From an uncultured Actinomycetes bacterium (GTDB taxonomy: Bacteria; Actinomycetota; UBA4738; HRBIN12): a stretch of DNA of 64,000 bases. The notes under the pieces are model-generated. The model searched no databases and was not told the origin of the DNA. It saw nothing but the letters and a program-made list of their open reading frames with translations. Positions within the stretch are counted from its first letter, which is position 1. Each line of letters opens with the position of its first letter. The position numbers and the translations under genes are program-made. The DNA lies in NCBI GenBank assembly GCA_963727185.1, contig CAVSFP010000006.1, positions 346,005-410,004 on the forward strand, read 5' to 3'. Positions 18,899-58,210 of the stretch are shown piece by piece.

Positions 18899-21800
18899 CT
18901 AGCGTTCGCGTCGCTCTGCTGTTCCCTCGCTCGCGGACTCGGTGCGTTCCCGCTCCGCGGTGATGTCGACCCACATCCCGTGCAGCAGCGGGCGGCCGTG
19001 GTCGTCGTGGCCGAGGTTCCCCCAGCTGCGGAGCCACAGGACCCTTCCATCACGTGCGACGATGCGGAACTCGGACCGCCAGGGCTCGCCGCGGCGGATG
19101 CAGCGCTCTGCCAACGCCAGCGTCGCCGCGAGGTCGCCCGGGTAGACGAGCCTGGAGAAGAACCGAGGTTCGGCGATGAGCTCCTCCGACGTGTACCCGA
19201 GTAGCTGCTCCACCTGTGGCGCGATGTAGATCGGACGCCAGTCGGTCGGATCCTCCACGCCGTATGTCCACGCGACCCCCGGCATCTGTTCGACGAGCGA
19301 TCGCAGGACGGCCGCCTCCTCACGCTCGCGCTCTTCCCGTTCCTTGCGGTCGGTGACGTCCATCATGATGCCCTGGAGCCGGCGGGGACGACCGTCGTCT
19401 TCACGCTCCACCGTTCGACCTTCGAGGTGCATCCATACGATCCGACCGTCGTCCGCGATCATCCGGTAGTCGATGTCCCAGGGGTGGCCCTCCATGATGC
19501 GTTGGCTGCGCTCCCGGGCCGATGCGAGGTCGTCGGGGTGCACCATGTCCAGCATGCTCCATGGGTCCGCGTAGAAGCGCGCGGCCGGATACCCGAGGAT
19601 GTCCTGGACCTGCGGGCTCATGTACCGGAGTCGGAACCGCTGCTCGAGCGCCAGGTCGAATTCGAGGACGAGGAAGACCACGGGCCCTTCCTCGGCGATC
19701 TCACGGTAGCGCTGCGCGGTCTGGGCGGCGTATTCCTCCGCCCGATGGCGTTCCGTCATGTCCATCAGAACGCCCTGGAACAACTGCGGGCGTCCCAGTT
19801 GATCGCGCGAGAGCAGCGTGGCGTGGTCGAACACGACGACGAGCCGGCCGTCCTTGGCGAACACCCGGTACTCCTCGCTGAACGGCTCACCGGTGGTCTC
19901 GCTGCGCGCGGATGCAGCCAGGACGCGGTCACGGTCGTGCGGATGGAGCCGTTCGATCCAGATGTCGCTGCTGTTCCATTCCTCGGCCGAATAGCCGAGC
20001 AGCTTCTCGATGCGAGGGCTGGTGTACATCCCGGAAGGGTTCTCGCGATCGTGGACCTGCCGCATGTACACGACCGCGGGCAGATCCTCGACGAGTCTGC
20101 GATAGCGTTCGCGCGTCTGCCGGAGCTCGGCTTCGATGCGTTTGCGCTCGCCGATCTCGAGCGCCATCATCTCGTTCGCGTCCTCGAGCTCGGCCGTCCG
20201 CTCCAGCACACGGAACTCGAGGTCGTCGTTCGACTGACGGAGTCGTTCCTCCAGATCCTTCTGTGCCGTGACATCCAGCATGACTCCCTGCCACGTGGAG
20301 ACGTTCCCGGCCTCGTCGCGGACGAGTCGAGCCTGGTCGCGCACCCATACGACCCTGCCGTCGCTCGCGATCAACCGATACTCCTGGCTCCACGGCTCGC
20401 CCGTCTCGTTGTGGAGGTCGTGCGCGGCCAGCTGGATCTCTCTGTCGTCGGGGTGGAGCAGTTCGATCCAGATGTCCGGCTGGTCCAACCATTCGGCTCG
20501 CGAATAGCCGAACAAGGCCTCCACCTGCGGGCTCACGAAGAGTGTGCGTCGTTCGTCGTCCGGGTCCATCTCATAGACGACGGCAGGGACCTGCTCGACG
20601 AGCATCCGATACCGGGCGTCGGACGCACGGAGGTCGTCCTCGGCGCGTTTGCGATCCGTCAGGTCCTGGATCAGTCCCTGCCAATGGATCGGGTTCCCGT
20701 CGACGTCGCGGACCAGCACGGCCGCCTCTCGCACGAACACGACCGCGCCGTCGCGGCGGAACAACCGGAAGTCGCAGAAGAAGGAATCGCGGTGCCGAAC
20801 CGCATCGACCCATGCGTTCCCGACGCGTTCGACATCGTCCGGATGCATGATCCGGAAGAACAACGTTGGGTCGTCCTGGAACTCCTCGGGTCGATACCCG
20901 AGCATCCCCGTCGATTGTGGGCTGACGTAGTAGCAGATCGGCGCTTCTTCATGGGAGTCGATGAACACCACGGCGGGCACCTGCTCGACGAGCGCGCGGT
21001 GTCGCAGCTCGGACTCACGCACCATCACGTCGGCCCGCTTGGCTTCAGTGATGTCTTGGATCAGTCCTTGCCAGAACAACGGCTTACCGTCCTCGGAGCG
21101 CACGAGGCGCGCGGTGTCGTGGAACCACGAGACCCGGCCGTCACGGTGGACCGAGCGATACTCGACCGAGAAGGGCGCACGCCTTCCCACCGCGGACAGC
21201 CACTCATCACGCACACGCTCGCGGTCCTCGGGATGGGTGGCCTTCAGCCAGAGCCCTCTGTCGGCCATCCAATCCTCGACGGTGTAGCCCGTGAGCTCGA
21301 GCACCTGAGGACTCACGTACACGGGGGCCGGGTCGGCCTCGTTCGTATCGATGTACACGATCCCCGGCACCTGCTCCACGAGGGCGCGATACCGGGCCTC
21401 CGACCGGAGTCGTTCGTCCTCGGCTCGATGTTGCTCCGTCACATCGAGCATCACGCCTTGCCAGAACAACGGGGTGCCGTCGGTTGCATGCACGAGCCGA
21501 GCGACATCTCTCACCCAGAGGACGTGTCCGTCGCGGTGCACGACGCGATACTCGAACGAGACCTCCTCGGCGCCGTCGAGATGGAGCGGCCAATCGAGGT
21601 GCATGATGGCCCGATCGTCGGGATGGATCACCCGGAGCCACAGCTCGGGGTCGGAGATCCAGTCCTCCGGTGGATAGCCCGTGATCGTCTCGATCTGCCG
21701 ACTGACATAGATCGTGACCGGGTTCTCCTCATGTGTGTCGATGTAGACGACGGCGGGAAGCTGCTCCACCAACGACTGATAGCGGGTCTCCGCATGGACG

Positions 21801-22258
21801 AGCGGCTCGATCTCGTCGTCGTCCTTATCGAGCGGAGTGACCACACCGAACCACATGGCCGGCCTGTCGCCGGTGGCCGGAACCAGACTGGTCTGATCGC
21901 GCACCCAGCGCGTCGACCCGTCCGGAAGGAGGATCCGGTACTCCTCGTCCCACGATCCGGTGTCCTTGGCCGCATCTATGAGCATCCGGCCTCTATCCTC
22001 GGGATGGATATGCCGGATCTGTGCGGCGACGTCGCCCATCATCTCGTCGGGCGTCAGGCCCAGGATGGCCTCGCTCTGCGGGCTCACGTAGAGGTAGCGC
22101 TGATCGGTATGCCCGAACGGCAGGACGTACGTGACCGCTGGCACCGCCTCGATCACCTGCCGGTACAGATCCTCGGGCATCCCCGAGGAAGCGTCAGGCA
22201 TCCCGGAAGCCCCCGCGCTCATCCCCTCAGGGTAGACCCGCGGGGCGTGCCCCACCAC
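18899..22258 (-). CDS. 1119-aa protein composed of about 8 tandem PAS/PAC domains with no recognisable output domain
   Basis: Repeating roughly 125-aa units (RYRxLVEQxPAVVYxD...YVSPQxExLxGY..EW...W...HPDDRExV...W......PxxxEYRxxxxDGRVVWVxDxAxLVRDExGxPxxxQGVMLDVTxxKxAEExLR). No kinase, GGDEF, HTH or other effector domain. Translationally adjacent (6 bp) to upstream fdxA. Start codon choice among several N-terminal ATGs uncertain. Confidence 0.8.
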   Translation of the reverse strand: MVGHAPRVYPEGMSAGASGMPDASSGMPEDLYRQVIEAVPAVTYVLPFGHTDQRYLYVSPQSEAILGLTPDEMMGDVAAQIRHIHPEDRGRMLIDAAKDTGSWDEEYRILLPDGSTRWVRDQTSLVPATGDRPAMWFGVVTPLDKDDDEIEPLVHAETRYQSLVEQLPAVVYIDTHEENPVTIYVSRQIETITGYPPEDWISDPELWLRVIHPDDRAIMHLDWPLHLDGAEEVSFEYRVVHRDGHVLWVRDVARLVHATDGTPLFWQGVMLDVTEQHRAEDERLRSEARYRALVEQVPGIVYIDTNEADPAPVYVSPQVLELTGYTVEDWMADRGLWLKATHPEDRERVRDEWLSAVGRRAPFSVEYRSVHRDGRVSWFHDTARLVRSEDGKPLFWQGLIQDITEAKRADVMVRESELRHRALVEQVPAVVFIDSHEEAPICYYVSPQSTGMLGYRPEEFQDDPTLFFRIMHPDDVERVGNAWVDAVRHRDSFFCDFRLFRRDGAVVFVREAAVLVRDVDGNPIHWQGLIQDLTDRKRAEDDLRASDARYRMLVEQVPAVVYEMDPDDERRTLFVSPQVEALFGYSRAEWLDQPDIWIELLHPDDREIQLAAHDLHNETGEPWSQEYRLIASDGRVVWVRDQARLVRDEAGNVSTWQGVMLDVTAQKDLEERLRQSNDDLEFRVLERTAELEDANEMMALEIGERKRIEAELRQTRERYRRLVEDLPAVVYMRQVHDRENPSGMYTSPRIEKLLGYSAEEWNSSDIWIERLHPHDRDRVLAASARSETTGEPFSEEYRVFAKDGRLVVVFDHATLLSRDQLGRPQLFQGVLMDMTERHRAEEYAAQTAQRYREIAEEGPVVFLVLEFDLALEQRFRLRYMSPQVQDILGYPAARFYADPWSMLDMVHPDDLASARERSQRIMEGHPWDIDYRMIADDGRIVWMHLEGRTVEREDDGRPRRLQGIMMDVTDRKEREEREREEAAVLRSLVEQMPGVAWTYGVEDPTDWRPIYIAPQVEQLLGYTSEELIAEPRFFSRLVYPGDLAATLALAERCIRRGEPWRSEFRIVARDGRVLWLRSWGNLGHDDHGRPLLHGMWVDITAERERTESASEGTAERRER

Positions 22259-22264
22259 CGTCGC

Positions 22265-22600
22265 TCAGGCTTCGATGACGACGGGGAGTGCGGCGACCAG
22301 CGGATGGTCGACGTGCGAATCCTCTGCCTGGGCAGCACCTCCGGGGTTCCCGAGGTTGGTGACGTTGGGCCCGAAGAACTCGCGCTCGATCTGCTCGTAC
22401 CCGCGCCACTCGTCCGGAAGATCGTCTCGACTGAAGATGGCTGTCACCGGACACACCGGCTCGCAGGCAGCGCAGTCCACGCACTCGTCAGGATTGATGT
22501 AGCCCTTGCGGAGCCCGTCGTAGATGCAATCGACGGGGCATTCGTCCACGCACCCTCGATCGTGGACGTCCACACACGGCTCAGCGATCACGTAGGCCAT
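22265..22600 (-). CDS. fdxA: 7Fe ferredoxin (3Fe-4S + 4Fe-4S), FdxA-type
   Basis: MAYVIAEPCVDVHDRGCVDECPVDCIY...CVDCAACEPVCPVTAIF, classic FdxA cysteine pattern. Confidence 0.85.
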   Translation of the reverse strand: MAYVIAEPCVDVHDRGCVDECPVDCIYDGLRKGYINPDECVDCAACEPVCPVTAIFSRDDLPDEWRGYEQIEREFFGPNVTNLGNPGGAAQAEDSHVDHPLVAALPVVIEA

Positions 22601-22748: not shown

Positions 22749-22838
22749 GGGAGGATGGCCGAGCGGACGAAGGCGACGGTCTTGAAAACCGTTGGTCCCG
22801 CAAGGGGCCCGTGGGTTCGAATCCCACTCCTCCCGCCG
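22749..22838 (+). tRNA. tRNA-Ser (anticodon TGA), class II
   Basis: Acceptor GGGAGGA/TCCTCCC-G. Anticodon arm ACGGT-CTTGAAA-ACCGT. Long variable arm GGTCCCGCAAGGGGCCC. T-arm GTGGGTTCGAATCCCAC. CCA not encoded. Confidence 0.8.
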
Positions 22839-22874
22839 CGGTCCGAACCGAGCGGCTCGTCTCGCGAGAAGGGT

Positions 22875-23435
22875 GTGACGGTCGTTCCTATCGTCGGGAT
22901 CCTCGCCCACATCGTCGGCCCCGGCTACGGGCCGCTGATCGCGATGGCGTTCTTCTTCGTGGGGATGGGAGCGGCGGTGGGGGTGTTTCTGCTCTCCGGC
23001 CACCCGCGGACCTCCGTGCAACGAGCCGCGAGGATCGGCCTGGTGGTGGTCGCAACGGGGTGCTTGGGGTTCGCGACCGCCGTTCCCTTCTTCTATCACC
23101 CGGGTCCGTCGTTCATCAGGCCAGCTTCCACGGCCCGCCTCGAGATCGTGTCGCCTCGTCCGGGCCAGACGTTCCGCGGCGAGCCCGCGACCGTTCAGGT
23201 GACCCTTCGACTCGACGGCGGCACGATCGTTCCGCTCACGTCGACGGCCGTCGTGCCGAACGAGGGGCACATCCACGTCTTCCTCGACGACCGTCTCCTG
23301 TCGATGGCCGGGCTCGATGCGGAGATCATCGCCTTGCCCGGCGAGCACACGTTGCGAGCGGAGTTCGTTGCGTCCGATCACGGGCCGTTCCGGCCACCCG
23401 TGACGGCATCGGTCACGTTCCTGGTCCGCTCCTGA
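22875..23435 (+). CDS. hypothetical membrane protein with periplasmic beta-rich domain (HIHVF motif)
   Basis: GTG start after GAGAAGGG RBS, downstream of the tRNA (the annotated ORF start at 22755 overlaps the tRNA and is rejected). 3 TM helices then soluble domain EGHIHVFLDDRL. Located directly upstream of the cytochrome oxidase locus. Confidence 0.45.
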   Translation: MTVVPIVGILAHIVGPGYGPLIAMAFFFVGMGAAVGVFLLSGHPRTSVQRAARIGLVVVATGCLGFATAVPFFYHPGPSFIRPASTARLEIVSPRPGQTFRGEPATVQVTLRLDGGTIVPLTSTAVVPNEGHIHVFLDDRLLSMAGLDAEIIALPGEHTLRAEFVASDHGPFRPPVTASVTFLVRS

Positions 23436-23625
23436 AAGGGATCGATCCGGCCGCGGCGCTCGAACCCTGGATGACAACCGTGAAATGTTGCGGCGATATC
23501 CGCACCGTCGCGGAGAGCCGACCGAGGTCGGGTCGTGACAGTCCTGTCATCAATCTTGTTTCCCGAGCCGGGTCGTTGGAGGGTGCGCCTGCACGGGTGG
23601 GGGTGGCATCGAGAGGGAGGGTGGC

Positions 23626-24123
23626 ATGGTCCGATCGCTTCGGTGGGGAAGGGTATCGGCGCTCCTCGCCGTCGTTGTCCTGGGTGCTCCGGCATGCTTG
23701 AAGTCGGCGAGCAGCTCGGATACCGGGTCCTCTTCCTCCACACCCACGAAGATCTTCGTGCAGCAGTTCAGGTACCACGGGGTGCCGACCACGATCACCT
23801 CAGGTGTTCACGAGTTCCTCTTCCAGAACCAGGAGTCGTTCCCGATCACGCACGAGATGATCCCGATCGCCTTACCGTCCGGGAAGACGGCCCAGGACGT
23901 GATCGATGGGGCGAAAACGAACGGCCCAAGTGACGAGGACAGCTGGCTGCACATCGGGGGCGATTTCGGCGCGGTCGACACCGGGGCCGGCATCATCGAG
24001 ATCCTCAATCTTCCACCAGGTACCTATGCGTTCGCCTGCTGGCAGACGGGGACGCAGAGCGGCGGCGATAACGGCCCGCCGCACGCTTCGATCGGGATGG
24101 TGGCCCAGTTCACGGTCACGTGA
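23626..24123 (+). CDS. secreted lipoprotein, possibly cupredoxin-like
   Basis: Signal peptide with lipobox-like LGAPAC. C-terminal C-x13-H-x4-M (FACWQTGTQSGGDNGPPHASIGM) plus upstream His (ITHEM) could form a copper site. Fold assignment tentative. Confidence 0.5.
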   Translation: MVRSLRWGRVSALLAVVVLGAPACLKSASSSDTGSSSSTPTKIFVQQFRYHGVPTTITSGVHEFLFQNQESFPITHEMIPIALPSGKTAQDVIDGAKTNGPSDEDSWLHIGGDFGAVDTGAGIIEILNLPPGTYAFACWQTGTQSGGDNGPPHASIGMVAQFTVT

Positions 24124-25166
24124 GCGGTTCGGGGCGTTCCGGCCTGCAACGCAGGCTTCGGCGCCATCTCCTTCGGATCGGGGTGGTGCTTGGGTCGCTC
24201 TTGCTTTCATCCTGCGCGCAGCAAGGGATCTCGTGGCAGTCGCAGAACGTCCACACGCTCTACCTGATCATCATGGGACTCGCCCTGCCCGTGTTCATCG
24301 GCGTGGAAGCGGCGCTCATCTGGTGCATCGTCCGTTACCGCAAGCGCGACGACACACCCGCTCCGCAAACGGTCGGTGGATCGCGCTCCCTCGGCGTGTT
24401 CTTCGTGATCCCCGCCGTGATCGTCGCGGTGCTCTTCCCGTTCGGCGAGGAAACGCTCTTGCTGCTCCAGCAGCACGAGACACCGGAGGTGCAGATCCAT
24501 GTGGAGGGGTTCCAGTGGGAATGGACCTTCCTGTACCTGAACGAGGGCATCTTCGAGAGCGGCAAGACGCTCGTCCGCCCCGCCGAGATGGTGCTGCCCG
24601 TCGACGAGACCGTGCAGATCACGCTGACCTCTCGCGACGTGATCCACTCATTCTTCATACCCGCTCTCCTCTTCAAGCGGGACGCGATCCCCGGCCGCAC
24701 CAGCACGTTCACGTTCACGCCGAGCGTGCTCGGGACGTTCCAGTCCCAATGCGCCGAGTTCTGCGGTCTCTGGCATTCGAAGATGACGTTCGTCGTGAAG
24801 GTCGTGTCGTCCGCGGACTACCAGGCGTGGATCGAGCAGCAGCGGGAGGCCGCGAGCGGCATCACCTGTGACCCAACCGGAACCGACCTCTCGCTCGTCG
24901 CACACAACATCTCGTGGAACGCCTTCTGCCTCGCGGTTCCCGGGAACACGCCGTTCACGCTGAACATCACGAACGAGGACGTCGGGATCGAGCACAACTT
25001 CTCCATCTACGACAGCTTCTTCGAGAAACAGCAGTTCTTCACGTCACCGAAGATCACCGGTCCCACCTCGGAGACCCTCAACGTCGACGGGTTGGCACCG
25101 GGTCGCTACTACTTCCAATGCGACGTCCACGGTCCCGCGATGTCCGGGGCGTTCATCGTCACATGA
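24120..25166 (+). CDS. ctaC: cytochrome c oxidase subunit II (CuA) fused to a C-terminal type-1 copper cupredoxin domain
   Basis: Signal/lipobox (LLLSSCAQQG), 2 TM. CuA motif H-x34-CAEFCGLWHSKM. Extra about 110-aa C-terminal domain with blue-copper ligand pattern (IEHNF...YYFQCDVHGPAM: H...C-x2-H-x3-M). Confidence 0.85.
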   Translation: MSGSGRSGLQRRLRRHLLRIGVVLGSLLLSSCAQQGISWQSQNVHTLYLIIMGLALPVFIGVEAALIWCIVRYRKRDDTPAPQTVGGSRSLGVFFVIPAVIVAVLFPFGEETLLLLQQHETPEVQIHVEGFQWEWTFLYLNEGIFESGKTLVRPAEMVLPVDETVQITLTSRDVIHSFFIPALLFKRDAIPGRTSTFTFTPSVLGTFQSQCAEFCGLWHSKMTFVVKVVSSADYQAWIEQQREAASGITCDPTGTDLSLVAHNISWNAFCLAVPGNTPFTLNITNEDVGIEHNFSIYDSFFEKQQFFTSPKITGPTSETLNVDGLAPGRYYFQCDVHGPAMSGAFIVT

Positions 25167-25188: not shown

Positions 25189-26820
25189 ATGGCCGTGACC
25201 GAAGCTCCTTCCAGAGAGCTTGCGCCCGAACCGGAACGAGGCCGGCTGCTCGACTGGCTGAAGACGACCGACCACAAGAAGATCGGCATCCTCTACCTGA
25301 TCAGCAGCTTCTCGTTCTTCGCGGTCGGTGGCGTGTTCGCGCTCCTCATGCGGACCGAGCTCGCGCGGCCCGGGACGCAGATCTTCCAACCCCACGCGTA
25401 CAACCAGCTCTTCACGATGCACGGCACGTTGATGATCTTCCTGGTGATCTTCCCGCTGCTCGCCGGGTTCGGGAACTACTTCGTCCCGCTGCAGATCGGC
25501 GCGCTGGACATGGCCTTCCCGCGGATCAACGCGCTGTCATTCTGGCTCTTGCCGGTCGGCGGGCTCACGATCCTGTCGGGGTTCTTCGCGAAGGGCGGAG
25601 CGGCGGCCGCCGGGTGGACCGGGTATCCGCCGCTGTCCGAACAGCTCGGGACCGGCCAGGATCTTTGGATCGCCGGGCTCATCATCGTGGGGACGGCGTC
25701 GATCCTGGGCGGCATCAACTTCATCGTGACGATCCTGCGGATGCGTGCGCCGGGTATGACCATGATGCGGATGCCCGTCTTCACGTGGAGCATCCTCGCG
25801 ACGTCGCTCCTCGTGGTCCTCGCGGCGCCGGTGCTCACGGCCGGGCTGATCATGCTCTTCGCCGACCGGCGACTGGGCACGGTGTTCTTCGATCCGACGC
25901 AAGCGGGCGTCGTGATCCTGTGGCAGCACGTGTTCTGGTTCTTCGGCCATCCCGAGGTCTACATGCTGATCCTGGGCGCCTGGGGCATCGTGACCGAGAT
26001 CATCTCGGTGTTCTCGGGCAAGCCGATCTTCAGCTACCGGGGCGTGGTGCTGTCGTTCCTGCTGATCACGGCGCTGTCGTTCAGCGTGTGGGCGCACCAC
26101 ATGTTCGCCACCGGGGCAGTGGAGCTTCCGTTCTTCAGCGTCACGACCGAGCTCATCTCGATCCCGACCGGCGTGCTCTTCTTCATCTGGCTGAGCACGC
26201 TGTGGAAAGGACGACTGCGGTTCGAGCCGCCCATGCTCTTCGCGCTCGGCTTCATCGCGATGTTCCTGATCGGGGGGATCAACGGCGTATGGGCCGCCTC
26301 TCCCGCGATGGACTTCGCGATCACGGACACCTACTGGGTCGTCGCTCACCTGCACTACGTGCTGTTCGGAGGGACCATCTTCGGCGTGTTCGCGGGCATG
26401 TTCTATTGGTTCCCGAAGATGACCGGCAGGTTCCTCTCGCGCAAGCTCGGTATCTGGCAGTTCTGGCTCCAGCTGATCGGGTTCAACCTCACCTTCTTCC
26501 CGATGCACATCCTCGGGCTCCGAGGGATGCCCCGGCGGATCGCCGACTACGCGCCGGACCGTGGCTGGAGCTTCCTGAATCTGGTCGCCACGATCGGCGC
26601 CTTCGTGATCGCGATCGCGATGATCGTGTTCTTCGTGAACATCTTCGTCACGCTGCGGAAGCCGCGGACGCCGATGCCGGACGATCCGTGGGACGCCAAC
26701 ACCCTCGAATGGGCGACGTCGTCACCTCCCCCCGCGCATAACTTCGATTCGCTGCCGCCGATCCGCTCCGACCGCCCCGTCTACGACCTGCGCATGGCGA
26801 ACAAGGAGGTGGGCGCATGA
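25189..26820 (+). CDS. ctaD: cytochrome c oxidase subunit I (heme-copper oxidase catalytic subunit)
   Basis: 543 aa, 12 TM, canonical motifs ([21 protein letters not shown] equivalent: [31 protein letters not shown]). Confidence 0.9.
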   Translation: [543 protein letters not shown]

Positions 26821-27404
26821 GCACCGTGGCGGTGCCGGATGGAGCCCCTCAACGCGAGATGAGCGGGCCCGTCCTCGGCATGGTGCTGTTCGTCGCCTCG
26901 GAGGCCATGTTCTTCGGGGCGTTCTTCGCGGGCTACTTCACGATCAAGGACAACGCGAAGGTGTGGCCGCCGCCGGGGATCCCGCACCTCAAGATCGACA
27001 TCGCGACCATCCTCACGATCATCCTCGTGGCCAGCAGCGTGGTCATCCAACTCTCGCTCCGGTCGATCCGAAGTGGCAACGAGCGGCGCGCGCGTCTCCT
27101 CTTGGGTATCACGATCGCCCTGGGCATCACGTTCCTCCTCCTGCAGCTGTACGACTACTCACAGCTCGGGTTCGGCGTGAAGGACGGGACGTTCGGCACG
27201 CTCTTCTACGTGATGACGGGCATCCACATGGCGCACGTGTTCGGCGGCGTCGTCTTCCTCGCACTCGTGTTCAGCCAGGCGATGGGCGGTGCGTTAACTC
27301 CCTCGAACCACGACTCCCTCGCAGCCGGCGCCATCTACTGGGATTTCGTCGACGTCGTATGGCTGCTCCTGTTCACGACCTTCTATCTGCTGACGCCGAG
27401 GTGA
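26817..27404 (+). CDS. ctaE: cytochrome c oxidase subunit III
   Basis: ATGA overlap with ctaD. 5 TM, motifs FGAFFAGYF, GIHMAHVFGGVVFL typical of subunit III. Confidence 0.85.
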   Translation: MSTVAVPDGAPQREMSGPVLGMVLFVASEAMFFGAFFAGYFTIKDNAKVWPPPGIPHLKIDIATILTIILVASSVVIQLSLRSIRSGNERRARLLLGITIALGITFLLLQLYDYSQLGFGVKDGTFGTLFYVMTGIHMAHVFGGVVFLALVFSQAMGGALTPSNHDSLAAGAIYWDFVDVVWLLLFTTFYLLTPR

Positions 27405-27408
27405 TCCC

Positions 27409-28212
27409 ATGAGTTCGTTTGCACGGATCTGCTTCTCGCTCACAGTGTTCTTGGCGGTCGCCGGCACCGTGTACGGGCTGACGAGCCATGAGCTCGCCGG
27501 AACGACGCTCCTCGCCGTCGCGGCGATCACGTTCTGCTTCCTCGGGGTTGTGTCACGGATGGTGGCACGCCGCGAGGCCGAGGCGGAGGCCGAGGAGATG
27601 GAGGTCCACGTGGGCCCGACGATCTGGCCCTTCGGGTTCGCGATCGCCGCGGTGATCATCGCCCTCGGGCTGATCGTCACGCCCTGGCTCTTGGTCCTCG
27701 GCGCGTTCGCGTTCGCGCTCGCTGCGGCCGGGTGGCTCCGCGACGCTGCCCACTCCCGGGCGCACGCCGGAAACACCCCGAGCGGTCGATCACGCGCGGA
27801 TCATCATCCAGCCGGTGACCGCGAGGAGCGTCACGATGACCACCAGGAACACCGTGGCGTGGTATTGCGTGGGGCTCGGGCTGGGGAGCCGCGCCGGGTT
27901 GCAGCGCCTGCACACCGACTCGCCCCACGGGACGCGCTCGTGGCATCGGATGCATCGGTCGTAGCGGTCACGCGTTCCCTTCACCGGTCCCTCCCTCGTG
28001 TCACGTTCACGCGGCGATCATCCGATCCACGACGAGCGCCGCGAACAGCGCCGCCAGGTAGACGAGCGAGTAGCGGAAGAGCCGGCGGGCGGTCGCGGTG
28101 TCCGCATCCCGCCGGAACGACTCGGCCCGCCACACGAAGACGCCGCCGAGCCCCGCGGCGCTCGCCGTGTACAGCGCGCCCGCCCCGTTCCACAGGGCCG
28201 GCCCAAGGCTGA
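27409..28212 (+). CDS. ctaF: cytochrome c oxidase subunit IV-like (CtaF-like) 4-TM protein; C-terminal 130 codons doubtful
   Basis: First 135 aa form 4 TM helices as expected for actinobacterial CtaF. The ORF then continues as low-complexity Arg/Pro-rich sequence across the convergent small ORF and 200 bp into ctaB. Likely a frameshift or missed stop near 27800 (a TGA is available in the +2 frame at about 27818). Confidence 0.45.
   Translation: MSSFARICFSLTVFLAVAGTVYGLTSHELAGTTLLAVAAITFCFLGVVSRMVARREAEAEAEEMEVHVGPTIWPFGFAIAAVIIALGLIVTPWLLVLGAFAFALAAAGWLRDAAHSRAHAGNTPSGRSRADHHPAGDREERHDDHQEHRGVVLRGARAGEPRRVAAPAHRLAPRDALVASDASVVAVTRSLHRSLPRVTFTRRSSDPRRAPRTAPPGRRASSGRAGGRSRCPHPAGTTRPATRRRRRAPRRSPCTARPPRSTGPAQG
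27790..27984 (-). CDS. small zinc-ribbon membrane protein (64 aa), hypothetical
   Basis: CIRCHERVPWGESVCRRC (CxxC-x11-CxxC) followed by a single TM helix (VFLVVIVTLLAVTGWMMI). Lies within the doubtful tail of the ctaF ORF on the opposite strand. Confidence 0.3.
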   Translation of the reverse strand: MKGTRDRYDRCIRCHERVPWGESVCRRCNPARLPSPSPTQYHATVFLVVIVTLLAVTGWMMIRA

Positions 28213-28912
28213 CGACGACGGTCGCCACCGCATAGACGAACGCCTGGTTCGCGGTGCGTTTCACCGAGATGACGGCCGGAAGCATGGGGATGTTGGCGCG
28301 CCGGTAGTCCCGGCGGAGCAACGTGGCGAGCGCCCAGAAGTGCGGCGGCGTCCACAGGAAGATCACGGCCGCGAGCGTGAGCGCGGTGGCATCGAGACCC
28401 CCCGTCGCGGCGGCCCACCCCACGAGCGGCGGGAAGCAGCCCGCCGCGCCACCGATCACGATGTTCTGGGTCGACCGGCGCTTGAGCCAGGCCGTGTAGA
28501 TCCCCAGGTACCACGCTGTTCCGGCGAGGGCCAGGGCGGCGGCGAGCAGGTTCGCGGACCGGGTCAGCCAGATCCCCGCGGCGACGTTCATCGCGATACC
28601 CAGCACCACCGCGTGCAGCATCGGGATGCGCCCGTCCGGGATCGGTCGGCTGCGCGTGCGCGCCATCACGGCATCGAGGTCCCGGTCGAAGGCGCAGTTG
28701 AGGGCGTTCGCGCCTCCGGCCGCGAGCGCGCCGCCACCGGCGACCGCGAGGAGGACCGCGATCTGCACGTGGCCGGCGGCTCCGGCGAGGTACCCGCAGA
28801 TACCGGTCACCACCAGGAGAGACACGACGCGTGGTTTCGTCAGCGCGATGTAGTCCGAGACCGTCGCGGCTGCATCGCCGATGCGCGAGGCACGGTCGAC
28901 GGAGACGCTCAT
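28007..28912 (-). CDS. ctaB: protoheme IX farnesyltransferase (heme O synthase)
   Basis: UbiA-family motifs (NCAFDRDLDAVMARTRSRPIP; multiple TM). Adjacent to cta genes. Confidence 0.85.
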   Translation of the reverse strand: MSVSVDRASRIGDAAATVSDYIALTKPRVVSLLVVTGICGYLAGAAGHVQIAVLLAVAGGGALAAGGANALNCAFDRDLDAVMARTRSRPIPDGRIPMLHAVVLGIAMNVAAGIWLTRSANLLAAALALAGTAWYLGIYTAWLKRRSTQNIVIGGAAGCFPPLVGWAAATGGLDATALTLAAVIFLWTPPHFWALATLLRRDYRRANIPMLPAVISVKRTANQAFVYAVATVVVSLGPALWNGAGALYTASAAGLGGVFVWRAESFRRDADTATARRLFRYSLVYLAALFAALVVDRMIAA

Positions 28913-29763
28913 CGAGCCGTCCCGCCCGCGGCCTCAGCCGTGATGCGTTCACGGAGCAGCTGGGCATCGATGCGGACCGCCGCTCGCTCATCCGCTCGCA
29001 TCCAATCGAGCATCACGAGCGCGAGCGCAGGCACGATTTGGATCATCCCCCCAACCCACATGAGCGTCCCGCCGATCCGCTGGTCCGCGATCGCGTTCCC
29101 TGCACCCTCCACGGCTCCGTAGGTTGGATACAGGACATGGTTGGCGCTGAAAAGCGCCAGTCCCAGGAACGCCATCGACGCCATCGCGAAGAAGAGATAC
29201 AGGATCCGAGCAGGGTGCGAGAGAGCCGCCGGAGAGGGGTCGCGACCGACGACCGGCATCCAGAACAGGACGGCGGTCACCAGGTAGGCGACATGTTCGA
29301 GCGCGTGGATGCCGTCGCTCTGCAGAGACGCTTCGAACAGTCCCGTGAAGTGGGATCCCCACAAAACGCCGAAGAACAGGGACCAGGCCACGATGGGCTC
29401 GGAGAGCGTCCGGAGCGGCGGACGCCTGAGCGCGGCGGCGAGCCGCCGTCGAGAGGCAGGCGACGACGAGAGAAGGGCAAGGGTCACGGGAGCACCCAGC
29501 ACCAAGAGCGGCGCGGCGACCATCGTGAGCAACAGATGCTGGACCATGTGAACGGTGAACGACGTCGCTGATCCGGTATCGATCGGCGACTCGAGCGCGA
29601 TGAAGATGATCCCCAAGCCCGCGAGGAACTCCCGCCGGCGGGCCCGTGGGAACCGTCGGTCGCCTCGCGCGCGGCGGACACGTCGGTCCGCGCGGACGTA
29701 CACGACCCCGGTCACGCCGAGGCCGAAGATGACCGCGGGGTCAAACGTCCAGTTCGCGAGCAT
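28909..29763 (-). CDS. ctaG: cytochrome c oxidase assembly factor CtaG (Caa3_CtaG family membrane protein)
   Basis: 7-TM protein with HMVQHLLLTMVAAPLLVLG and HALEHVAYLVTAVLFW motifs characteristic of Caa3-type CtaG. Overlaps ctaB stop. Confidence 0.7.
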   Translation of the reverse strand: MLANWTFDPAVIFGLGVTGVVYVRADRRVRRARGDRRFPRARRREFLAGLGIIFIALESPIDTGSATSFTVHMVQHLLLTMVAAPLLVLGAPVTLALLSSSPASRRRLAAALRRPPLRTLSEPIVAWSLFFGVLWGSHFTGLFEASLQSDGIHALEHVAYLVTAVLFWMPVVGRDPSPAALSHPARILYLFFAMASMAFLGLALFSANHVLYPTYGAVEGAGNAIADQRIGGTLMWVGGMIQIVPALALVMLDWMRADERAAVRIDAQLLRERITAEAAGGTAR

Positions 29764-30897
29764 CGCTCTCTAGCGCTCTGAACGTGCGCGTCGACACGGG
29801 AGCCAGCTCCGCCCGCGCTTGGGTCGACGAGCGCTCGGGTGGAGTGGGTACTACCGGGGAGAGCGGAAGGAGGATCTCGAACGTCGTGCCAACTCCGACC
29901 GCGCTGGAGACGCTCACCTCGCCGCCATGGGCGTCCACGATCGCCTTCACGATCGACAGGCCAAGGCCGGAGCCGCCGGTGTGTCTACTGCGTCCCGGGT
30001 CGGCTCTGGCGAACCGGTCGAAGATGTGATCGAGGTCGGCGGCCGGGATGCCCGCCCCCGTGTCGCGGACCGAGATCACCGCCCGTGAGCCGCCGCGGTG
30101 GATGCCCACTTCGATCGTGTCCTGTTCCTGCGTGTGGTTCACGGCGTTCTCGATCAGGGCGTCGAGCGCCACCTCGAGCCGGTCGGCGTCGGCGATGACG
30201 GTGGCTTCCTCGGCCGCTCCCAGGAGCCATCGACGTGGTGTCGCCGTCCATCGGCGAACGGCGTCCATCACGATCGTCTCCAGGTCCACGACCGCGGGAT
30301 GGAGGAACTCGGGATCCTCGCTCCCGGCCAGGACGAGCAACCGATCGGCCAGGCGCCGCAGCCGCATCAGCTCGTCGGCGATCACCGCGGCGTCGTCCGC
30401 GACCGTTGGATCGTCCGCGCTTCGCTGGATCAGCTCGGCGTGTCCGAGCGCGACCGTGATCGGCGTCCGCAGCTCGTGGGAGGCATCCTGCACGAAGCGC
30501 CGTTCCCGCTCGAGCAGGCGGAGGTTCTCCATGGAGACGCGCTCCGTCTCCTCCATCGCGGTGAGACGCCGCCGGCGTGCCACACCATCGCAAGGAACAT
30601 GGCCGCCATCAGGGGCACCTCGGTCAGCTCATCGAGCGGGGTGATGGCGTTCTTCACGTCCAGCCAGATCAACAGACCGGTCAATCCCATCACGAACGCC
30701 AGGATCACGAACGTGGGACGCGCCTTCCACACGCGGAACCCGTAGAGGATGGTGAGGCTCACCCAGATGAAGTGGAACGGCACCGTCTCCCATTCGGGGA
30801 ACATGAGCATGGCCCCGAGGTTCGCGAGCGAGAAGAGCACCCACGCGACGTCGAACCAGCGGACCCGGTTCGGCCACTCGACGCGGTCAGTCAGCAT
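29741..30897 (-). pseudogene. two-component sensor histidine kinase, frameshifted between TM sensor region and HisKA domain
   Basis: N-terminal 4-TM region (ORF 30430..30897) ends ...FLAMVWHA. HisKA/HATPase part (ORF 29741..30583: ...FVQDASHELRTPIT...; GAGIPAADLDHIFDRFARAD; GGSGLGLSIV) is in the -1 frame. Junction at about 30580-30600 (GC-rich cacgccggcggcg). Confidence 0.65.
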
Positions 30898-31591
30898 CGA
30901 TCCGGTATCCCACGCCCCGGACGGTGACGATCGTCTCCGCGCCCAGCTTCGCGCGCAACCTGCGGATGTAGACGTCGACCACGTTCGAACCCGGATCGAA
31001 GTGGTACCCCCAGACCGATGAGAGCAGACGCTCCTTCGACACCGTCTGGCCGGCGTTGCGCATCAGCTCGCCGAGCAGCAGGAACTCGCGCTCGGCGAGC
31101 GGGATCGGGCCGGCACCGGCGTCGGCTCGCCTGCGGATCAGGTCGAGGGAGAGCGAGCCCGTCTGCAGGCGGGTCGGGTTCGACCGGGCGGCGGTCCGCA
31201 GGCGCGCACGGACGCGGGCGAGGAGCTCCTCCAGCGAGAACGGCTTCGAGATGTAGTCCTCGGCGCCGAGCTCGAGGCAGCTGACCTTCGATGCCGTGTC
31301 GTTCAAGGCCGAGAGGATCAGGACCGGTTGTGAGGGTTTGCGGTCGAGGATCCTTCGAAGCACGGCTTGACCGTCCAGGCTCGGCATCACGAGGTCGAGG
31401 ACCACGAGGTCGTACATGTTGGTGAGCGCGAGCCGCAGACCCTCTTCGGCCTCGCGCGCCGAATCGACCGCCATCCCCTCGGCCTCGAGCCCGCGGTGGA
31501 CGAAGTTGAGGATCCGCTGCTCGTCGTCGATCACCAAGATGCGACCGACGGGAGCCGCCTCGGCCTCGGACCGCACCGCTAACGACGTCAT
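30887..31591 (-). CDS. OmpR-family two-component response regulator
   Basis: Receiver (RILVIDDEQRILNFV...DLVVLDLVMP) plus winged-helix output (VVDVYIRRLRAKLG...RGVGYRI). Start at internal ATG (MTSLAVR). Confidence 0.8.
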   Translation of the reverse strand: MTSLAVRSEAEAAPVGRILVIDDEQRILNFVHRGLEAEGMAVDSAREAEEGLRLALTNMYDLVVLDLVMPSLDGQAVLRRILDRKPSQPVLILSALNDTASKVSCLELGAEDYISKPFSLEELLARVRARLRTAARSNPTRLQTGSLSLDLIRRRADAGAGPIPLAEREFLLLGELMRNAGQTVSKERLLSSVWGYHFDPGSNVVDVYIRRLRAKLGAETIVTVRGVGYRIDAD

Positions 31592-31713
31592 GCCCCCACC
31601 TCGCCGCATACAGTAGCCACGACCGCGCGGGCTGGATAGTCGGACACGGTGCCTGCGGAGTGACAGTTCTGTCATGCGACCTGCCGAACATCGGCGTCGG
31701 TAAGGAGGGTGCG

Positions 31714-52326: not shown

Positions 52327-53631
52327 TCAGCCCTCGAACGACGCCGCGGCTTCGAGCGTTCGCTCGGTCGTGGCGTCGTCGTGCGCGGTGCAGAGGCTCC
52401 ACAGCTCGTAGCCGGACGGCGGCAGGTAGACGGCGCGGTCCAGCATGTGATGGAAGAACCGCGCGTACCGCTCGTGGTCGGCACCCTTCGCGTCCTCGAA
52501 GTTCCGCACCGTGCGATCCGTGAAGAACACGCTGAACATCGACCGCGCCCGGTTCAGGGTGGCGGCGATGCCGGCGGCGGCGAACCGTTCGGCGAGACCG
52601 TCCGTGAGGTCGATGGCACCCCGCTCGAGCGCGTCGTACGGCCGCTCGCGATCGGCGAGATCCAGCGCCGCGATGCCGGCCGCGACCGCGACCGGGTTCC
52701 CGCTCAGTGTTCCGGCTTGGTAGACGGGACCCGTCGGCGCGAGCTGCTCCATCACGGCCCCGCGTCCGCCGAACGCCGCGCACGGGAACCCCCCGCCCAT
52801 GATCTTCCCCAACGCGGTCAGGTCGGGCGTCACCCCGTACACCGAGCCGGCGCCCTCGTACGCCACCCGGAAGCCGGTGATCACCTCGTCGAAGAAGAGC
52901 AGGGCTCCGTGCTCGTCGCAGAGCGCGCGGAGCCCTTCGAGGAACCCCGGCTCCGGCGGCACGACCCCCATGTTCGCGGCGACGGGCTCGACCACGACGA
53001 CCGCGATCTCGCGCCCGCGTTCGCCGAAGATCGCCGCGACGGCGTCCAGGTCGTTGAACGGGCTCGTTATCGTGTCCCTCGCCGACCCCTCGGTCACGCC
53101 GGGAGAGCCGGGTATGCCGAACGTGGCGACGCCCGAGCCGGCGCCCTTCGCCAGCAACGCGTCCGAGTGGCCGTGATAGCAACCATCGAACTTGACCAAC
53201 AGGTCGCGACCCGTGACGCCGCGCGCGAGCCTGATCGCGCTCATCGTCGCCTCGGTGCCTGACGAGACCAGACGCACCATGTCGATGCTTGGGACGGCCG
53301 AGACGATCCGCTCCGCGAGCTCGACCTCGCCGGCCGTCGGCGCGCCGAACGACGTACCGCGCGCGGCCGCCGCCGTCGCTGCCTCGACGATCTCGGGTCG
53401 CGCGTGCCCGAAGAGCAACGCCCCCCACGACTGGACGTAGTCCACGTAACGCACGCCGTCCACGTCGATCAGATGGGCGCCCTCGCCTCGTTCGACGAAT
53501 CGCGGCGTCCCGCCGACCGCTCCGAACGCGCGCACCGGGGAGTCGACGCCCCCGGGGATCACGTTGGAGGCACGTTTGAAGAGGTCGTCGGAGTTGCTCA
53601 CGCGAACGATGGTACGTGGCGGATCAATCAA
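52327..53631 (-). CDS. hemL: glutamate-1-semialdehyde 2,1-aminomutase
   Basis: PLP class III aminotransferase. IPGGVDSPVRAF, FDEVITGFRV, lysine motif region. Confidence 0.9.
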   Translation of the reverse strand: MIDPPRTIVRVSNSDDLFKRASNVIPGGVDSPVRAFGAVGGTPRFVERGEGAHLIDVDGVRYVDYVQSWGALLFGHARPEIVEAATAAAARGTSFGAPTAGEVELAERIVSAVPSIDMVRLVSSGTEATMSAIRLARGVTGRDLLVKFDGCYHGHSDALLAKGAGSGVATFGIPGSPGVTEGSARDTITSPFNDLDAVAAIFGERGREIAVVVVEPVAANMGVVPPEPGFLEGLRALCDEHGALLFFDEVITGFRVAYEGAGSVYGVTPDLTALGKIMGGGFPCAAFGGRGAVMEQLAPTGPVYQAGTLSGNPVAVAAGIAALDLADRERPYDALERGAIDLTDGLAERFAAAGIAATLNRARSMFSVFFTDRTVRNFEDAKGADHERYARFFHHMLDRAVYLPPSGYELWSLCTAHDDATTERTLEAAASFEG

Positions 53632-55282: not shown

Positions 55283-55286
<4 letters not shown>

Positions 55287-56938
55287 GAGCGGGATTCTAC
55301 CGAGGAGCGCCAGACCCGTTCCAGGGCCGAGACCAGGCCCTCGATCGTGTGCGGGCGGGCGACGGCCGAGACCCGCAGACCGTGCTCCCGAGCCTCGCGA
55401 GCCGTGACAGGACCGATGCTCACGACCTTCGGGTTCCCGCGGACGACCCCCATCGCTCCGACGAACCCGCGGACCGTCGATGCGCTGGTGAACGTGATGG
55501 CGTCGACGCCGCCGTCTCGGAGCGCGGTTCGCGCGTCGGTCGGGAGCGAGCGCGCCAGGCGCGTCCGGTACGCATCGACGCGGAGCGGGGACCAGCCCTT
55601 CGCCGCCAGCGCGTCCTCGAGTCCGCCGGGTGCGATGTCGGCTCGCGCGCAGAGGACGCCTCCGTCGCCGCGCGGGAACGCGCGGGCCAACCCTGCAGTC
55701 GTGAACGTCGCCGGCATGAGGTCGGGCGGCCGCCGGGCCCACGCGCGGAACGCCGCGCTCGTCCCATCGCCGATCGCCGCTACCTTCGCACGGACGGCCG
55801 CTGGGGAATCCAGCCTCGACGCCAGCATCTCCACCGTCGCGCGGCTGGTGAGCGTGATCCACGCGAACCGGCCCGCCGAGAGGTCGCGCAGCGCCGCGGT
55901 CAGTGCGGCGGATCGCGCCGGAACGATCTCGATCGTCGGCGCCACGATGGACGTGGCTCCCAGGCGGCGCAGCCGACGGACGAGCTCGACGGACTGGTCG
56001 GCCGGTCTCGTCACCAGGACGGTCCGGCCTGCGAGTGGCTTCACCGGTCGTCGTCCAGCGCCTCGAGGAATCTCTTCGGCTCCCTCGGCGATGAGATCCT
56101 TCGTCGCGAGCGCCGCGGCTCCCTCGGGGGAGTCGGAGACGACCTCCACGCGCGCCACCCGCGACCCATCGGGGGCGATGACGACGGCGAGCATCTCGAT
56201 GCGGCCTCCGTGAACGGTGGCCCGTGCGCCGAGCGGGAGCGCACAGCTGCCGCCGATCCGCCACATCAACGAGCGCTCCGCCTCGAGCGACATCCGGCTT
56301 TCGGCATGGTCGAGCGGCGCCAGGGCGGTGAGCGTCGCGAGATCGTCCTCGCGCGCCTGGAGCGCGAGCGCGCCCTGTCCGGGTGCGGGGACCATCACGT
56401 CCATCCCGAGGGGAGCGGAATGGGGCGCGGTGATGCCGAGACGCGTCAAGCCTGCGAGCGCGAGCACCGCGGCGTCGACGACGCCGTCGGTCACCTTCCG
56501 CAGTCGCGTGTCCACGTTCCCGCGAAGGTCTTCGACGGTCACCCCGGGGAACGCCCGGAGGAGTTGTGCTCGCCGGCGGATGCTCGACGTCCCGATCACG
56601 GCCCCGGTGCGGAGCGACGCCTCCCGCAGCACCAGGACATCGGCGGCGTCGAGTCGGGGAGGAACGGCCGCGATGATCAGGCCCTCGTCGTCCTCGGCCG
56701 GGAGGTCCTTGGCCGAATGGACGGCGACGTCGATCTCATCGCGTTCGAGCGCGTCGAGGATCGTGTCGACGAAGAGGCCCTTCAGGCCGGCCGGCGCCTC
56801 GCCGGATGGCGCCCCCTCGTCGCCCGATGTCGACATCGGAACGATCTCGGACTCCACGCCGTGCTCCGACAGGCGGCGGCGGACCTCGTCCGCCTGAGCG
56901 AGGGCGAGCGGAGAGCGGCGTGTCCCGGTCAGCGTCAC
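55283..56938 (-). CDS. hemCD: bifunctional hydroxymethylbilane synthase / uroporphyrinogen-III synthase (HemC-HemD fusion)
   Basis: GTG start overlapping hemA stop. HemC part (TRRSPLALAQADEV...AVHSAKDLP...GTSSIRRRAQL...GGSCALPLGA) continues without stop into HemD part (GRTVLVTRPADQSVELVRRLRRLGATSIVAPTIEIVP...ITFTSASTVRGF). Confidence 0.85.
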
Positions 56939-58210
56939 TCGGCGTCGGGGTCGAGCCGCAGGAGCTCCATCAGCAGCTTCGCGTGCAGGTCGTCGGCTCC
57001 GGGCTCGGATCGCTCCTTCAGCTCGACGATCGGGTCGTGCAAGAGCTTCGCGGCCACCCCACGTGCGACCGCTTCGACCGCCTCGCGCTCCCGAGGCGTC
57101 AGGTCGGAGAGACGACTTGCATAGCGGGCGAGCTCCGAGCGGACGGTCTCCTCGCCCCGTGCCTGCACGGCTCGGATCAACGGGGCGAGCGCGTCGGAGC
57201 GGCGCCGCACCACCCACCGCCGGACCTCCTCGGCCACGATCTCGTGCGCTCGAGCGATGTCGTCGGCGGTGGCGTCGCCCCCCGCCATGAGCCGTTCGCG
57301 GATGGCGCGGATGTCGATCGAGCCGCACGCCATCCAGCGCCACGACGCCGGGGTCGATGTCGCGAGGGACGGCCAGGTCCAACAGGACGAGCGGAGCGGT
57401 ACGGGTCCGTTCGAGTGCCGCACCGACGGTCTCGGCGTCGATCACCGCCCCGGCGGCGCCGGTCGCCGAGACCACCAGGTCCGCGTCCGCGATGGCCGAT
57501 CGGAGATGGTCGAGACCCGCGAAGTCGTCGCCAGCCCGCTCGGCCAACGCCCGCGCGTGCTCGAGCGAGCGGTTCAGCACCCGGACGCTGCCGACGCCAC
57601 GAGCATGCAGATGTTGCACCGCGAGTCCGGCCATCCGGCCGGCGCCGACCACGACCACGTGACGGTCGCGGAGATCGCCGAGCTCCTCCTCTGCCAGGTC
57701 GGCCCCGAGCGCAACGAACGCGTCGGGTGCAGCGCCGAGCGAGGTTTCGGCGCGCGCCCGTCGGCCCGCCCGCGCGGCCGCATGGAACAGGGAGCGCATC
57801 GCGGGGCCTGAGGCTCCTTCCGCCGCGGCCGTTCGCAGCGCCTCGCGCACCTGGGCGTGGATCTGCGTCTCGCCGATCACCATCGAATCCAGCCCCGCGG
57901 CCACCGCGAACAGGTGGTCGGCCGCGTCCTGCTCCCAATGGGAGTAGAGCGGCTCGGCCAGCTCCTCGGGAGCAACTCTGCGCGTCTCGGTCAGCACGCG
58001 TTTCAACGCCAGGAACCCGGCGTGGTACGAGGGGACGTTCGCGGTGATCTCGACTCGGTTGCAGGTGGACAGGATGACCGCCTCGTCGACGGCATCCATG
58101 TCGAGCGCGTGGCGGTAGGCCTTGACGAGCTCGTCGTCGGCGAACGAGAGCCGCTCCAGCAGCTCGATCGGTGCGCGTCGGAAGCTGATCCCGAGGGTGA
58201 GGATGGGCAT
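56935..58210 (-). pseudogene. hemA: glutamyl-tRNA reductase, apparent single frameshift
   Basis: N-terminal and NADPH domains in ORF 55283..58210 frame (MPILTLGISFRRAPIELLERL...STCNRVEI...VVVVGAGRMAG...LAVPRDIDPGVVALDGVRL) then dimerisation domain in ORF 56935..57423 frame (IDIRAIRERLMAGGDATADDIARAHEIV...KLLHDPIVELKERS). Junction about 57308-57330. Confidence 0.75.

Follow-up and report, generated by a model that had tools for sequence, protein, structure and literature searches.

The window analysed here is a 64,000-nucleotide stretch of contig CAVSFP010000006.1 from an uncultured Actinomycetes bacterium, and it contains an operon encoding an aa3-type cytochrome c oxidase whose subunit II continues beyond its usual end into a predicted type-1 copper (T1) domain. 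The guanine plus cytosine content of the window is 64-72%, and its open reading frames (ORFs) match uncultured soil metagenome-assembled genomes (MAGs) that bear the title 'uncultured Actinomycetes bacterium' or 'Actinomycetota bacterium'. Two adjacent genes on the positive strand are central to this analysis. The first, at 23626..24123, encodes a 165-residue, single-domain lipoprotein of what is called here the CWQTG family, characterized by its predicted fold, the conservation of its candidate ligands and its linkage to ctaC. The second, ctaC (24120..25166), encodes the 348-residue oxidase subunit II with its T1 domain, assigned by matches to the Pfam families COX2 and Cupredoxin_1 and to TIGR02866.

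The N-terminal part of CtaC contains a lipobox (Cys32) and two membrane helices, followed by the CuA domain (residues 121-239; 24480..24836, positive strand), which was delimited by Pfam and alignment and for which Foldseek searches of the PDB return COX2 chains only. The COX2 family matches residues 151-229 with an E-value of 3.3e-20, COX2_TM matches weakly, and the protein scores 178 bits against TIGR02866 CoxB, above the cut-off of 148. The CuA ligands are complete (H176, C211, E213, C215, H219 and M222), and the electron-entry tryptophan, Trp133, is kept within a QWEW motif; in an alignment of 71 homologues with 71-99% identity, all six ligands and Trp133 are invariant, in agreement with an earlier note on this DNA that had described a normal CuA site. 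No CxxCH motif was found in CtaC.

The final 104 residues of CtaC (245-348; 24852..25166, positive strand) make up the additional domain, which matches Cupredoxin_1 over residues 271-347 with an E-value of 2e-11 and a score of 44.3 bits against a cut-off of 27. Its ligand pattern consists of a histidine in the motif IEHNF, with asparagine in the next position as in classical T1 sites, and a subsequent C-x2-H-x3-M, corresponding to H292 (24993-24995), C334 (25119-25121), H337 (25128-25130) and M341 (25140-25142). These four residues, the asparagine, and the cysteines Cys250 and Cys270, which probably form a disulfide, are likewise invariant among the 71 homologues, and C..H...M is kept in 161 of 163 domains related to the C-terminal domain of CtaC. 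When a profile of 25 diverse copies of the domain was searched against solved structures, it matched auracyanin A (E-value 1.5e-12) and the auracyanin of Roseiflexus (1.5e-9), followed by the T1 domains of NirK, amicyanin, plastocyanin and rusticyanin. The profile comparison with blue copper proteins that the earlier note had proposed as a check on its cupredoxin assignment of the extension thus upholds that assignment, and the C-terminal domain of CtaC is, by its sequence, a bona fide type-1 cupredoxin.

The same unbroken ORF occurs in 42 species-representative MAG loci, which together with two related contigs constitute the 44 related loci compared throughout, and all 50 metagenome contigs with room for the whole of ctaC encode the C-terminal T1 domain; an origin of the fusion in a frameshift or assembly artefact was therefore rejected. 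The AlphaFold2 model of whole CtaC, with a mean predicted local distance difference test (pLDDT) score of 68.8 and a predicted template modelling (pTM) score of 0.53, has a beta-sandwich at residues 271-348 with block-mean pLDDT values of 66-83. Foldseek matches in the PDB consist of COX2 chains aligned over the N-terminal 200-280 columns, including mycobacterial CtaC and caa3 subunit IIc, with 2YEV chain B of caa3 among the top matches to the CuA part, and no solved oxidase with the extra domain was found among them.

It is conceivable that the T1 domain is vestigial or purely structural and that a QcrC-type cytochrome feeds CuA directly in a conventional supercomplex. The operon-bearing MAGs carry the titles Actinomycetes or Actinomycetota, cultured Actinomycetes use a bcc-aa3 supercomplex with the dihaem cytochrome QcrC, and the retention of Trp133 in CtaC also fits this explanation. 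However, the invariance of the four ligands, the asparagine and the Cys250/Cys270 pair within the clade, and the persistence of the ligands in distant fusions, argue for a functional metal site, and CtaC falls short of the actinobacterial aa3 CtaC model NF050117 (178.4 bits against a curated cut-off of 250). We regard a vestigial domain as highly improbable, and a functional T1 site is the interpretation preferred here.

Within a collection of 5.8 billion proteins, 1327 homologues of CtaC were identified; the best 120 all contain both PF00116 and PF13473, and none of these is named beyond 'cytochrome c oxidase subunit II'. The lineage with this operon is abundant in soil metagenomes. An exhaustive search of 1.84 billion cluster representatives with the 104-residue T1 domain gave 1835 matches, 417 of them at E ≤ 1e-10, that fall into three groups: free-standing proteins of 130-200 amino acids, tandem arrays in which a single protein has up to 20 matched stretches, and divergent COX2 fusions (P0261, P0269, P0291, P0305, and P0243, which has two cupredoxin copies). 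All of the clusters inspected are metagenomic. In a rough neighbour-joining tree, the window-type 'HG..M' domains group together, and those of P0289 and P0305 lie among the free-standing forms. The T1 cysteine follows the first CuA cysteine at a distance of 122-123 residues in the CtaC of the window and in P0241, P0261, P0272, P0289 and P0305, and the T1 domains of the last four share only 35-51% identity with that of the window; this constant spacing across divergent fusions suggests that the CuA and T1 domains form a rigid two-domain unit rather than being joined by a loose tether. Among the tandem arrays, the giant proteins P0242 (1795 residues) and P0274 (4549 residues) contain 16-20 matched stretches of the CtaC-type T1 domain and could be multi-copper counterparts of multihaem cytochromes, serving as 'wires'.

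The lipoprotein encoded upstream of ctaC has its lipobox cysteine at Cys24 (23695-23697), a Ser/Thr-rich tether at residues 25-40, and a folded domain at residues 41-165 in which H76 (23851-23853), C138 (24037-24039), H153 (24082-24084) and M158 (24097-24099) are the candidate copper ligands. In an alignment of 84 homologues, C24, H76, C138 and H153 are invariant, M158 is nearly invariant, and E77, W107, H109, W139, Q140, T141 and G142 are invariant as well; most of the invariant residues, including H76, C138 and H153, persist in relatives with 41-45% identity. No Pfam or NCBIfam model matches the lipoprotein at threshold. Cupredoxin_1 gives a sub-threshold match in 13 of the 84 family members (best E-value 0.009), the family profile matches the Roseiflexus auracyanin 6KOL alone among PDB sequences (E-value 0.058), and alignment with the T1-domain profile by hhalign is weak (probability 55%), pairing H76 with H292 and C138 with C334. 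The AlphaFold2 model, based on the 84-sequence alignment, has block-mean pLDDT values of 88-98 across residues 41-165 and a helix at residues 89-106, and its top Foldseek matches in the PDB are azurins and auracyanins with E-values of approximately 1e-6 and template modelling scores of 0.5-0.64. The predicted structure corresponds to an eight-stranded cupredoxin with an azurin-type helical insertion. The lipoprotein is, on this model, a cupredoxin by fold that belongs to no described sequence family, and the suggestion in the earlier note of a cupredoxin-like lipoprotein with a possible copper site is supported by the lipobox, the fold, the azurin and auracyanin matches and the His/Cys/His/Met candidate site.

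The length of the metal-binding loop in cupredoxins is thought to dictate the copper site's geometry. In the lipoprotein, 14 residues lie between C138 and H153 (CWQTGTQSGGDNGPPH; CWQTG...GPPH), a spacing that is conserved across the family and lies outside the range of 2-4, and the residue following the first histidine ligand is glutamate (E77) rather than asparagine. Spacings of 2-4 residues are found in blue and red cupredoxins and of 7-8 in green nitrite reductases, and the 6 residues in AcoP were deemed unprecedented (PMC4059628). There are 753 proteins in the CWQTG family, each with one to three domains and all annotated as 'hypothetical'. Two-domain forms are found as stand-alone genes, one of which is unrelated to cta. 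In the two-domain protein P0429, the candidate ligands have been lost from the first domain (TTDNM and TSWATGK) and are retained in the second, which makes P0429 a natural ligand-loss variant that could be of use for tests of function.

The lipoprotein gene lies directly 5′ of the fused ctaC in every related locus with upstream sequence (42 of 44), and the order lipoprotein-ctaC-ctaD-ctaE-ctaF, followed by a zinc-ribbon gene, ctaB in some loci, ctaG, and genes for a histidine kinase and a response regulator, is conserved. In the window, the lipoprotein stop codon and the GTG start codon of ctaC overlap by 4 bp (GTGA), an arrangement that indicates translational coupling of the two genes. A scan of metagenomes with the lipoprotein-domain profile retrieved 80 contigs, and ctaC begins within 200 bp downstream of the lipoprotein gene in all 71 that were informative, with at least 300 bp of downstream sequence. 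These comparisons establish the identities of the domains, the conservation of their ligands, the fixed architecture of CtaC and the strict linkage of the two genes. The association extends to the P0291 lineage, whose T1 domain is 45% identical to that of the window; there, the place of the lipoprotein gene is taken by one for a 457-residue lipoprotein with three tandem CWQTG domains (hhalign probability 99.9), and the operon also has genes for CopC/CopD, a two-component system and a TlpA-like redoxin. Divergent COX2-cupredoxin operons were also observed at L045 (14146..16200) and L047 (1634..6881), beside genes for large CopC/CopD fusion proteins and for a DUF1775 (YcnI-like) protein. The presence of CopC/CopD and DUF1775 genes in the flanks of divergent operons ties these oxidases to genes for copper import.

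Such linkage also bears on the possibility that the lipoprotein, and perhaps the C-terminal domain of CtaC, handles copper as a chaperone or buffer that loads CuA or CuB or protects the oxidase, given that cupredoxin-like proteins with copper-handling roles are known (PCuAC, CopC and CopI). Copper supply is a theme of the genomic surroundings of the divergent fusions, no Sco or PCuAC gene was found at the locus although the assembly genes ctaB and ctaG are there, the metal loop of the lipoprotein is non-canonical, and the adjoining two-component system resembles heavy-metal regulators at scores under their cut-offs. However, the lipoprotein and the C-terminal domain of CtaC both lack the PCuAC motif H(M)x10Mx21HxM and the Sco motif CxxxC. 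The fold matches of the lipoprotein are to electron-transfer cupredoxins, and the C-terminal domain has textbook T1 ligands and its nearest relatives in auracyanin, amicyanin and plastocyanin. Dedicated copper-handling proteins have their own genes in related operons, suggesting that assembly functions are supplied by other proteins, and the CWQTG domain occurs both triplicated in tandem and in stand-alone copies, a pattern that would be odd for a dedicated chaperone and is typical of electron carriers. The coupling of the lipoprotein gene to ctaC, these tandem and stand-alone copies, the lack of PCuAC and Sco motifs, and the separate copper-handling genes together favour a carrier over a chaperone, and copper handling is considered an unlikely role.

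Searches for a linked cytochrome c or Rieske protein found no credible CxxCH or Rieske ORF in the 64-kb window, within 10 kb on either side of the operon in the 44 relatives, or in additional loci amounting to 417 kb; the related flanks covered come to approximately 1.2 Mb, and the negative applies to these stretches alone. The sole CxxCH motif in the window belongs to a 64-residue zinc-ribbon protein, and a CxxCH-containing ORF in L018, L023 and L065 was rejected as a linked cytochrome c as it runs antisense to an ABC-2 permease gene. In mycobacteria and streptomycetes, hemL is followed by ccdA-resBC; no ccdA, resB or resC was found after hemL (52327..53631) in the window, which is only a hint. 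The fused T1 domain and the constant presence of the lipoprotein gene beside it suggest that electrons enter the oxidase by a copper-based rather than a cytochrome-c-based route.

Electrons on a copper-based route need not derive from quinol. The cupredoxins might instead form a high-potential wire from an extracytoplasmic oxidation, such as that of Fe(II) or Mn(II) or one by a dehydrogenase in the periplasm, that bypasses the quinone pool, and the rusticyanin/AcoP/aa3 system of Acidithiobacillus ferrooxidans is such an extracytoplasmic input chain. Consistent with this, the operon has no linked bc-type complex, domains related to the T1 domain form tandem arrays of up to 20 matched stretches, and iron oxidizers have oxidase operons with dedicated cupredoxins (PMC4059628). 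However, no gene for an outer-membrane cytochrome, multicopper oxidase or dehydrogenase is conserved beside the operon, the carriers are MAGs from neutral soils, and the T1 domain is nearest to the moderate-potential auracyanins rather than to rusticyanin; lithotrophic or periplasmic-substrate input is accordingly rated improbable.

The interpretation that we favour, and hold to be somewhat more probable than otherwise, is that the operon encodes an A1-type aa3 oxidase with a built-in type-1 copper electron-entry domain on subunit II, a copper counterpart of caa3. In the proposed pathway, an upstream donor, probably a menaquinol-oxidizing complex, would reduce the membrane-tethered CWQTG lipoprotein; the lipoprotein, the donor complex directly, or both would then reduce the T1 copper of CtaC; and the T1 copper, fixed beside CuA, would pass electrons to CuA, haem a, and then haem a3-CuB. 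We infer that both sites bind copper and are redox active, and likewise which way and in what order the electrons move and what ultimately supplies them. The earlier note had likewise proposed a copper-based electron input analogous to caa3, and this remains the most economical reading in view of the T1 domain, the fold of the lipoprotein and the strict co-inheritance of the two; a menaquinone-based chain fits the closeness of the T1 domain to auracyanins. In a bolder form of this proposal, the lineage would run an all-copper, cytochrome-c-free link from menaquinol to O2, with the CWQTG cupredoxin and the fused T1 domain replacing QcrC, a possibility that we put forward as doubtful.

Several observations weigh against the proposed electron-entry role. 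All carriers are uncultured MAGs or metagenome contigs, and the interpretation is drawn from sequence and models. The CtaC model is of moderate quality, with low interdomain confidence for the geometry of T1 relative to CuA. The 14-residue loop and the glutamate after the first histidine are unlike those of characterized electron-transfer cupredoxins, and the site of the lipoprotein may be non-classical. Two other fusion lineages, one of them flanked by CopC/CopD and DUF1775, are without an adjacent CWQTG gene, indicating that the lipoprotein is not needed by all such oxidases. Finally, a bcc complex may well be encoded elsewhere in the genome and act as the true donor.

As an oxidase with a built-in copper donor, the system proposed here would parallel the caa3 oxidases of Thermus thermophilus (PDB 2YEV) and Bacillus, which are likewise A-type and have their donor fused to the C-terminus of subunit II just after CuA; the fused domain there is a cytochrome c, whereas here it is a type-1 cupredoxin, and the two resemble each other only in function. 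Among solved proteins, the CtaC T1 domain is closest to the auracyanins of Chloroflexus and Roseiflexus, which occur with alternative complex III, and auracyanins, together with azurin, also match the lipoprotein best in structure and in profile. Auracyanins are blue copper proteins that are tethered to the membrane and carry electrons in a menaquinone-based chain, and a function in respiration has been proposed for auracyanin B (PMC3150298). However, auracyanins are free-standing and encoded apart from the cox genes, whereas in this operon one cupredoxin copy is fused and the other has a Cys-His loop of 14 residues in place of the usual 2-4. A cupredoxin encoded within an oxidase gene cluster is also known in AcoP, which is physically associated with the Acidithiobacillus ferrooxidans aa3 oxidase and whose Cys-His loop is of unusual length (PMC4059628). 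AcoP differs in being a separate protein, in its loop of 6 rather than 14 residues, and in serving an acidophilic iron-oxidizing chain that still uses c-type cytochromes, and no sequence relationship was detected.

Blue copper donors stand in place of cytochrome c in archaea, as in the SoxM/sulfocyanin system and in halocyanin with ba3. These archaeal copper chains consist of separate polypeptides, whereas the oxidase encoded in the window is bacterial and of the A1 type, has a subunit IV of the actinobacterial kind and carries its copper domain as a true fusion. Blue copper protein genes have also been found beside coxAB in the archaeal Ca. Angelarchaeales (PMC9038741). With the actinobacterial bcc-aa3 systems of Mycobacterium and Corynebacterium the operon shares the phylum, a CtaF-type subunit IV and a lipoprotein CtaC, and mycobacterial CtaC is among the structural matches; however, the cta genes here form a single ctaC-D-E-F operon with no adjacent qcrCAB, and the solved mycobacterial and corynebacterial CtaC proteins are without a T1 domain and align only to the CuA part.

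Both copper donors to oxidases (plastocyanin, halocyanin, sulfocyanin, auracyanin and AcoP) and fused donors (caa3) are already known; to our knowledge, however, every respiratory oxidase so far seen to carry its own donor does so as a cytochrome c fusion. Full-text literature searches turned up no description of the CWQTG family or of a subunit II with a fused T1 cupredoxin. The earlier note had allowed that the extension might be a common and already characterized feature of CtaC in this clade; it is universal there, but no published characterization was found. If the proposed role is correct, a T1 centre in permanent contact with the oxidase can supply electrons to the CuA entry site, and the fusion would provide a natural T1-to-CuA electron-transfer pair of fixed geometry for biophysical study. 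According to the textbook rule, Actinomycetota have an obligate bcc-aa3 supercomplex, which does without a mobile carrier and is targeted by drugs in mycobacteria; this operon would clearly depart from that rule. The lipoprotein, for its part, defines a cupredoxin family outside Pfam and NCBIfam, and its loop, far longer than those of characterized sites, makes it of bioinorganic interest.

Further upstream, an ORF at 22875..23435 encodes a strain-specific 186-residue membrane protein with a GHIH motif that the earlier note had included in the module as a candidate for copper delivery. No homologue was found in the 44 related loci, even at an E-value of 1, and the sole family signal is a sub-threshold match to DUF4399. 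The closest relative, L003, aligns to the window until 22844 and again from 23470, which places the ORF on a 625-bp insertion just 3′ of a tRNA-Ser(TGA) gene (22749..22837), within which the longer form of the ORF begins. This insertion, within the stretch 22749..23469, may be a small tRNA-adjacent one; nothing supports a delivery function, and the protein was rejected as a component of the module.

Downstream of ctaC on the positive strand, ctaD (25189..26820; Pfam COX1, E-value 6e-158) encodes subunit I with the A1-type GHPEVY motif, and the start codon of ctaE (26817..27404; subunit III, Pfam COX3, E-value 2e-37) overlaps the ctaD stop codon (ATGA). An alternative assignment of CtaC as a nitric oxide reductase-type subunit II (eNOR/sNOR) was set aside on account of the GHPEVY motif and the presence of subunits III and IV. 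The latter, of the actinobacterial type, is encoded by ctaF (27409..27783; Pfam Cyt_c_ox_IV, E-value 5e-9), delimited by comparison with relatives; the stop codon found in these after approximately 124 codons (TAG in L003) is missing in the window, and the ORF runs on for 143 codons to 28212, across the antisense zinc-ribbon gene and into ctaB. In the relative L030, ctaF has multiple frame breaks, which suggests long-read assembly errors in these MAGs.

The genes that follow lie on the negative strand. The first (27790..27984) encodes the 64-residue zinc-ribbon protein, with a CxxC...CxxC arrangement and a C-terminal membrane helix; a search of family models gave no match. The gene is conserved in nearly all related loci, always between ctaF and ctaB/ctaG, and its product may be an uncharacterized oxidase-associated factor. 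Next are ctaB (28007..28912; haem O synthase, Pfam UbiA, E-value 2e-56) and ctaG (28909..29763; a Caa3_CtaG-type oxidase assembly factor, PF09678, E-value 1e-71). Beside ctaG, comparison with related loci and family searches identified conserved genes for a sensor histidine kinase (29741..30897) and an OmpR-family response regulator (30887..31675), for which the top model is the heavy-metal CopR/CztR/SilR subfamily at a score under the cut-off of that model. The histidine kinase is split over two reading frames near 30500-30575 and intact (385 residues) in L001; the break is either an assembly indel or a sign of a pseudogene. In L001, the two-component system is followed by hemE, hemH and a hemY-like oxidase gene.

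Haem synthesis is also represented in the window by a single-frame ORF of 975 residues at 55283..58210 (negative strand), near hemL, that contains HemA, HemC and HemD domains and looks like a triple fusion of glutamyl-tRNA reductase, porphobilinogen deaminase and uroporphyrinogen-III synthase. On the other side of the operon, an 1119-residue protein (18899..22258, negative strand) consists almost entirely of PAS domains, with eight matched stretches and no output domain among the significant matches. It is adjoined by a gene for a 111-residue 4Fe-4S ferredoxin (22265..22600, negative strand), and the closest relatives also have this pair upstream of their cta operons.

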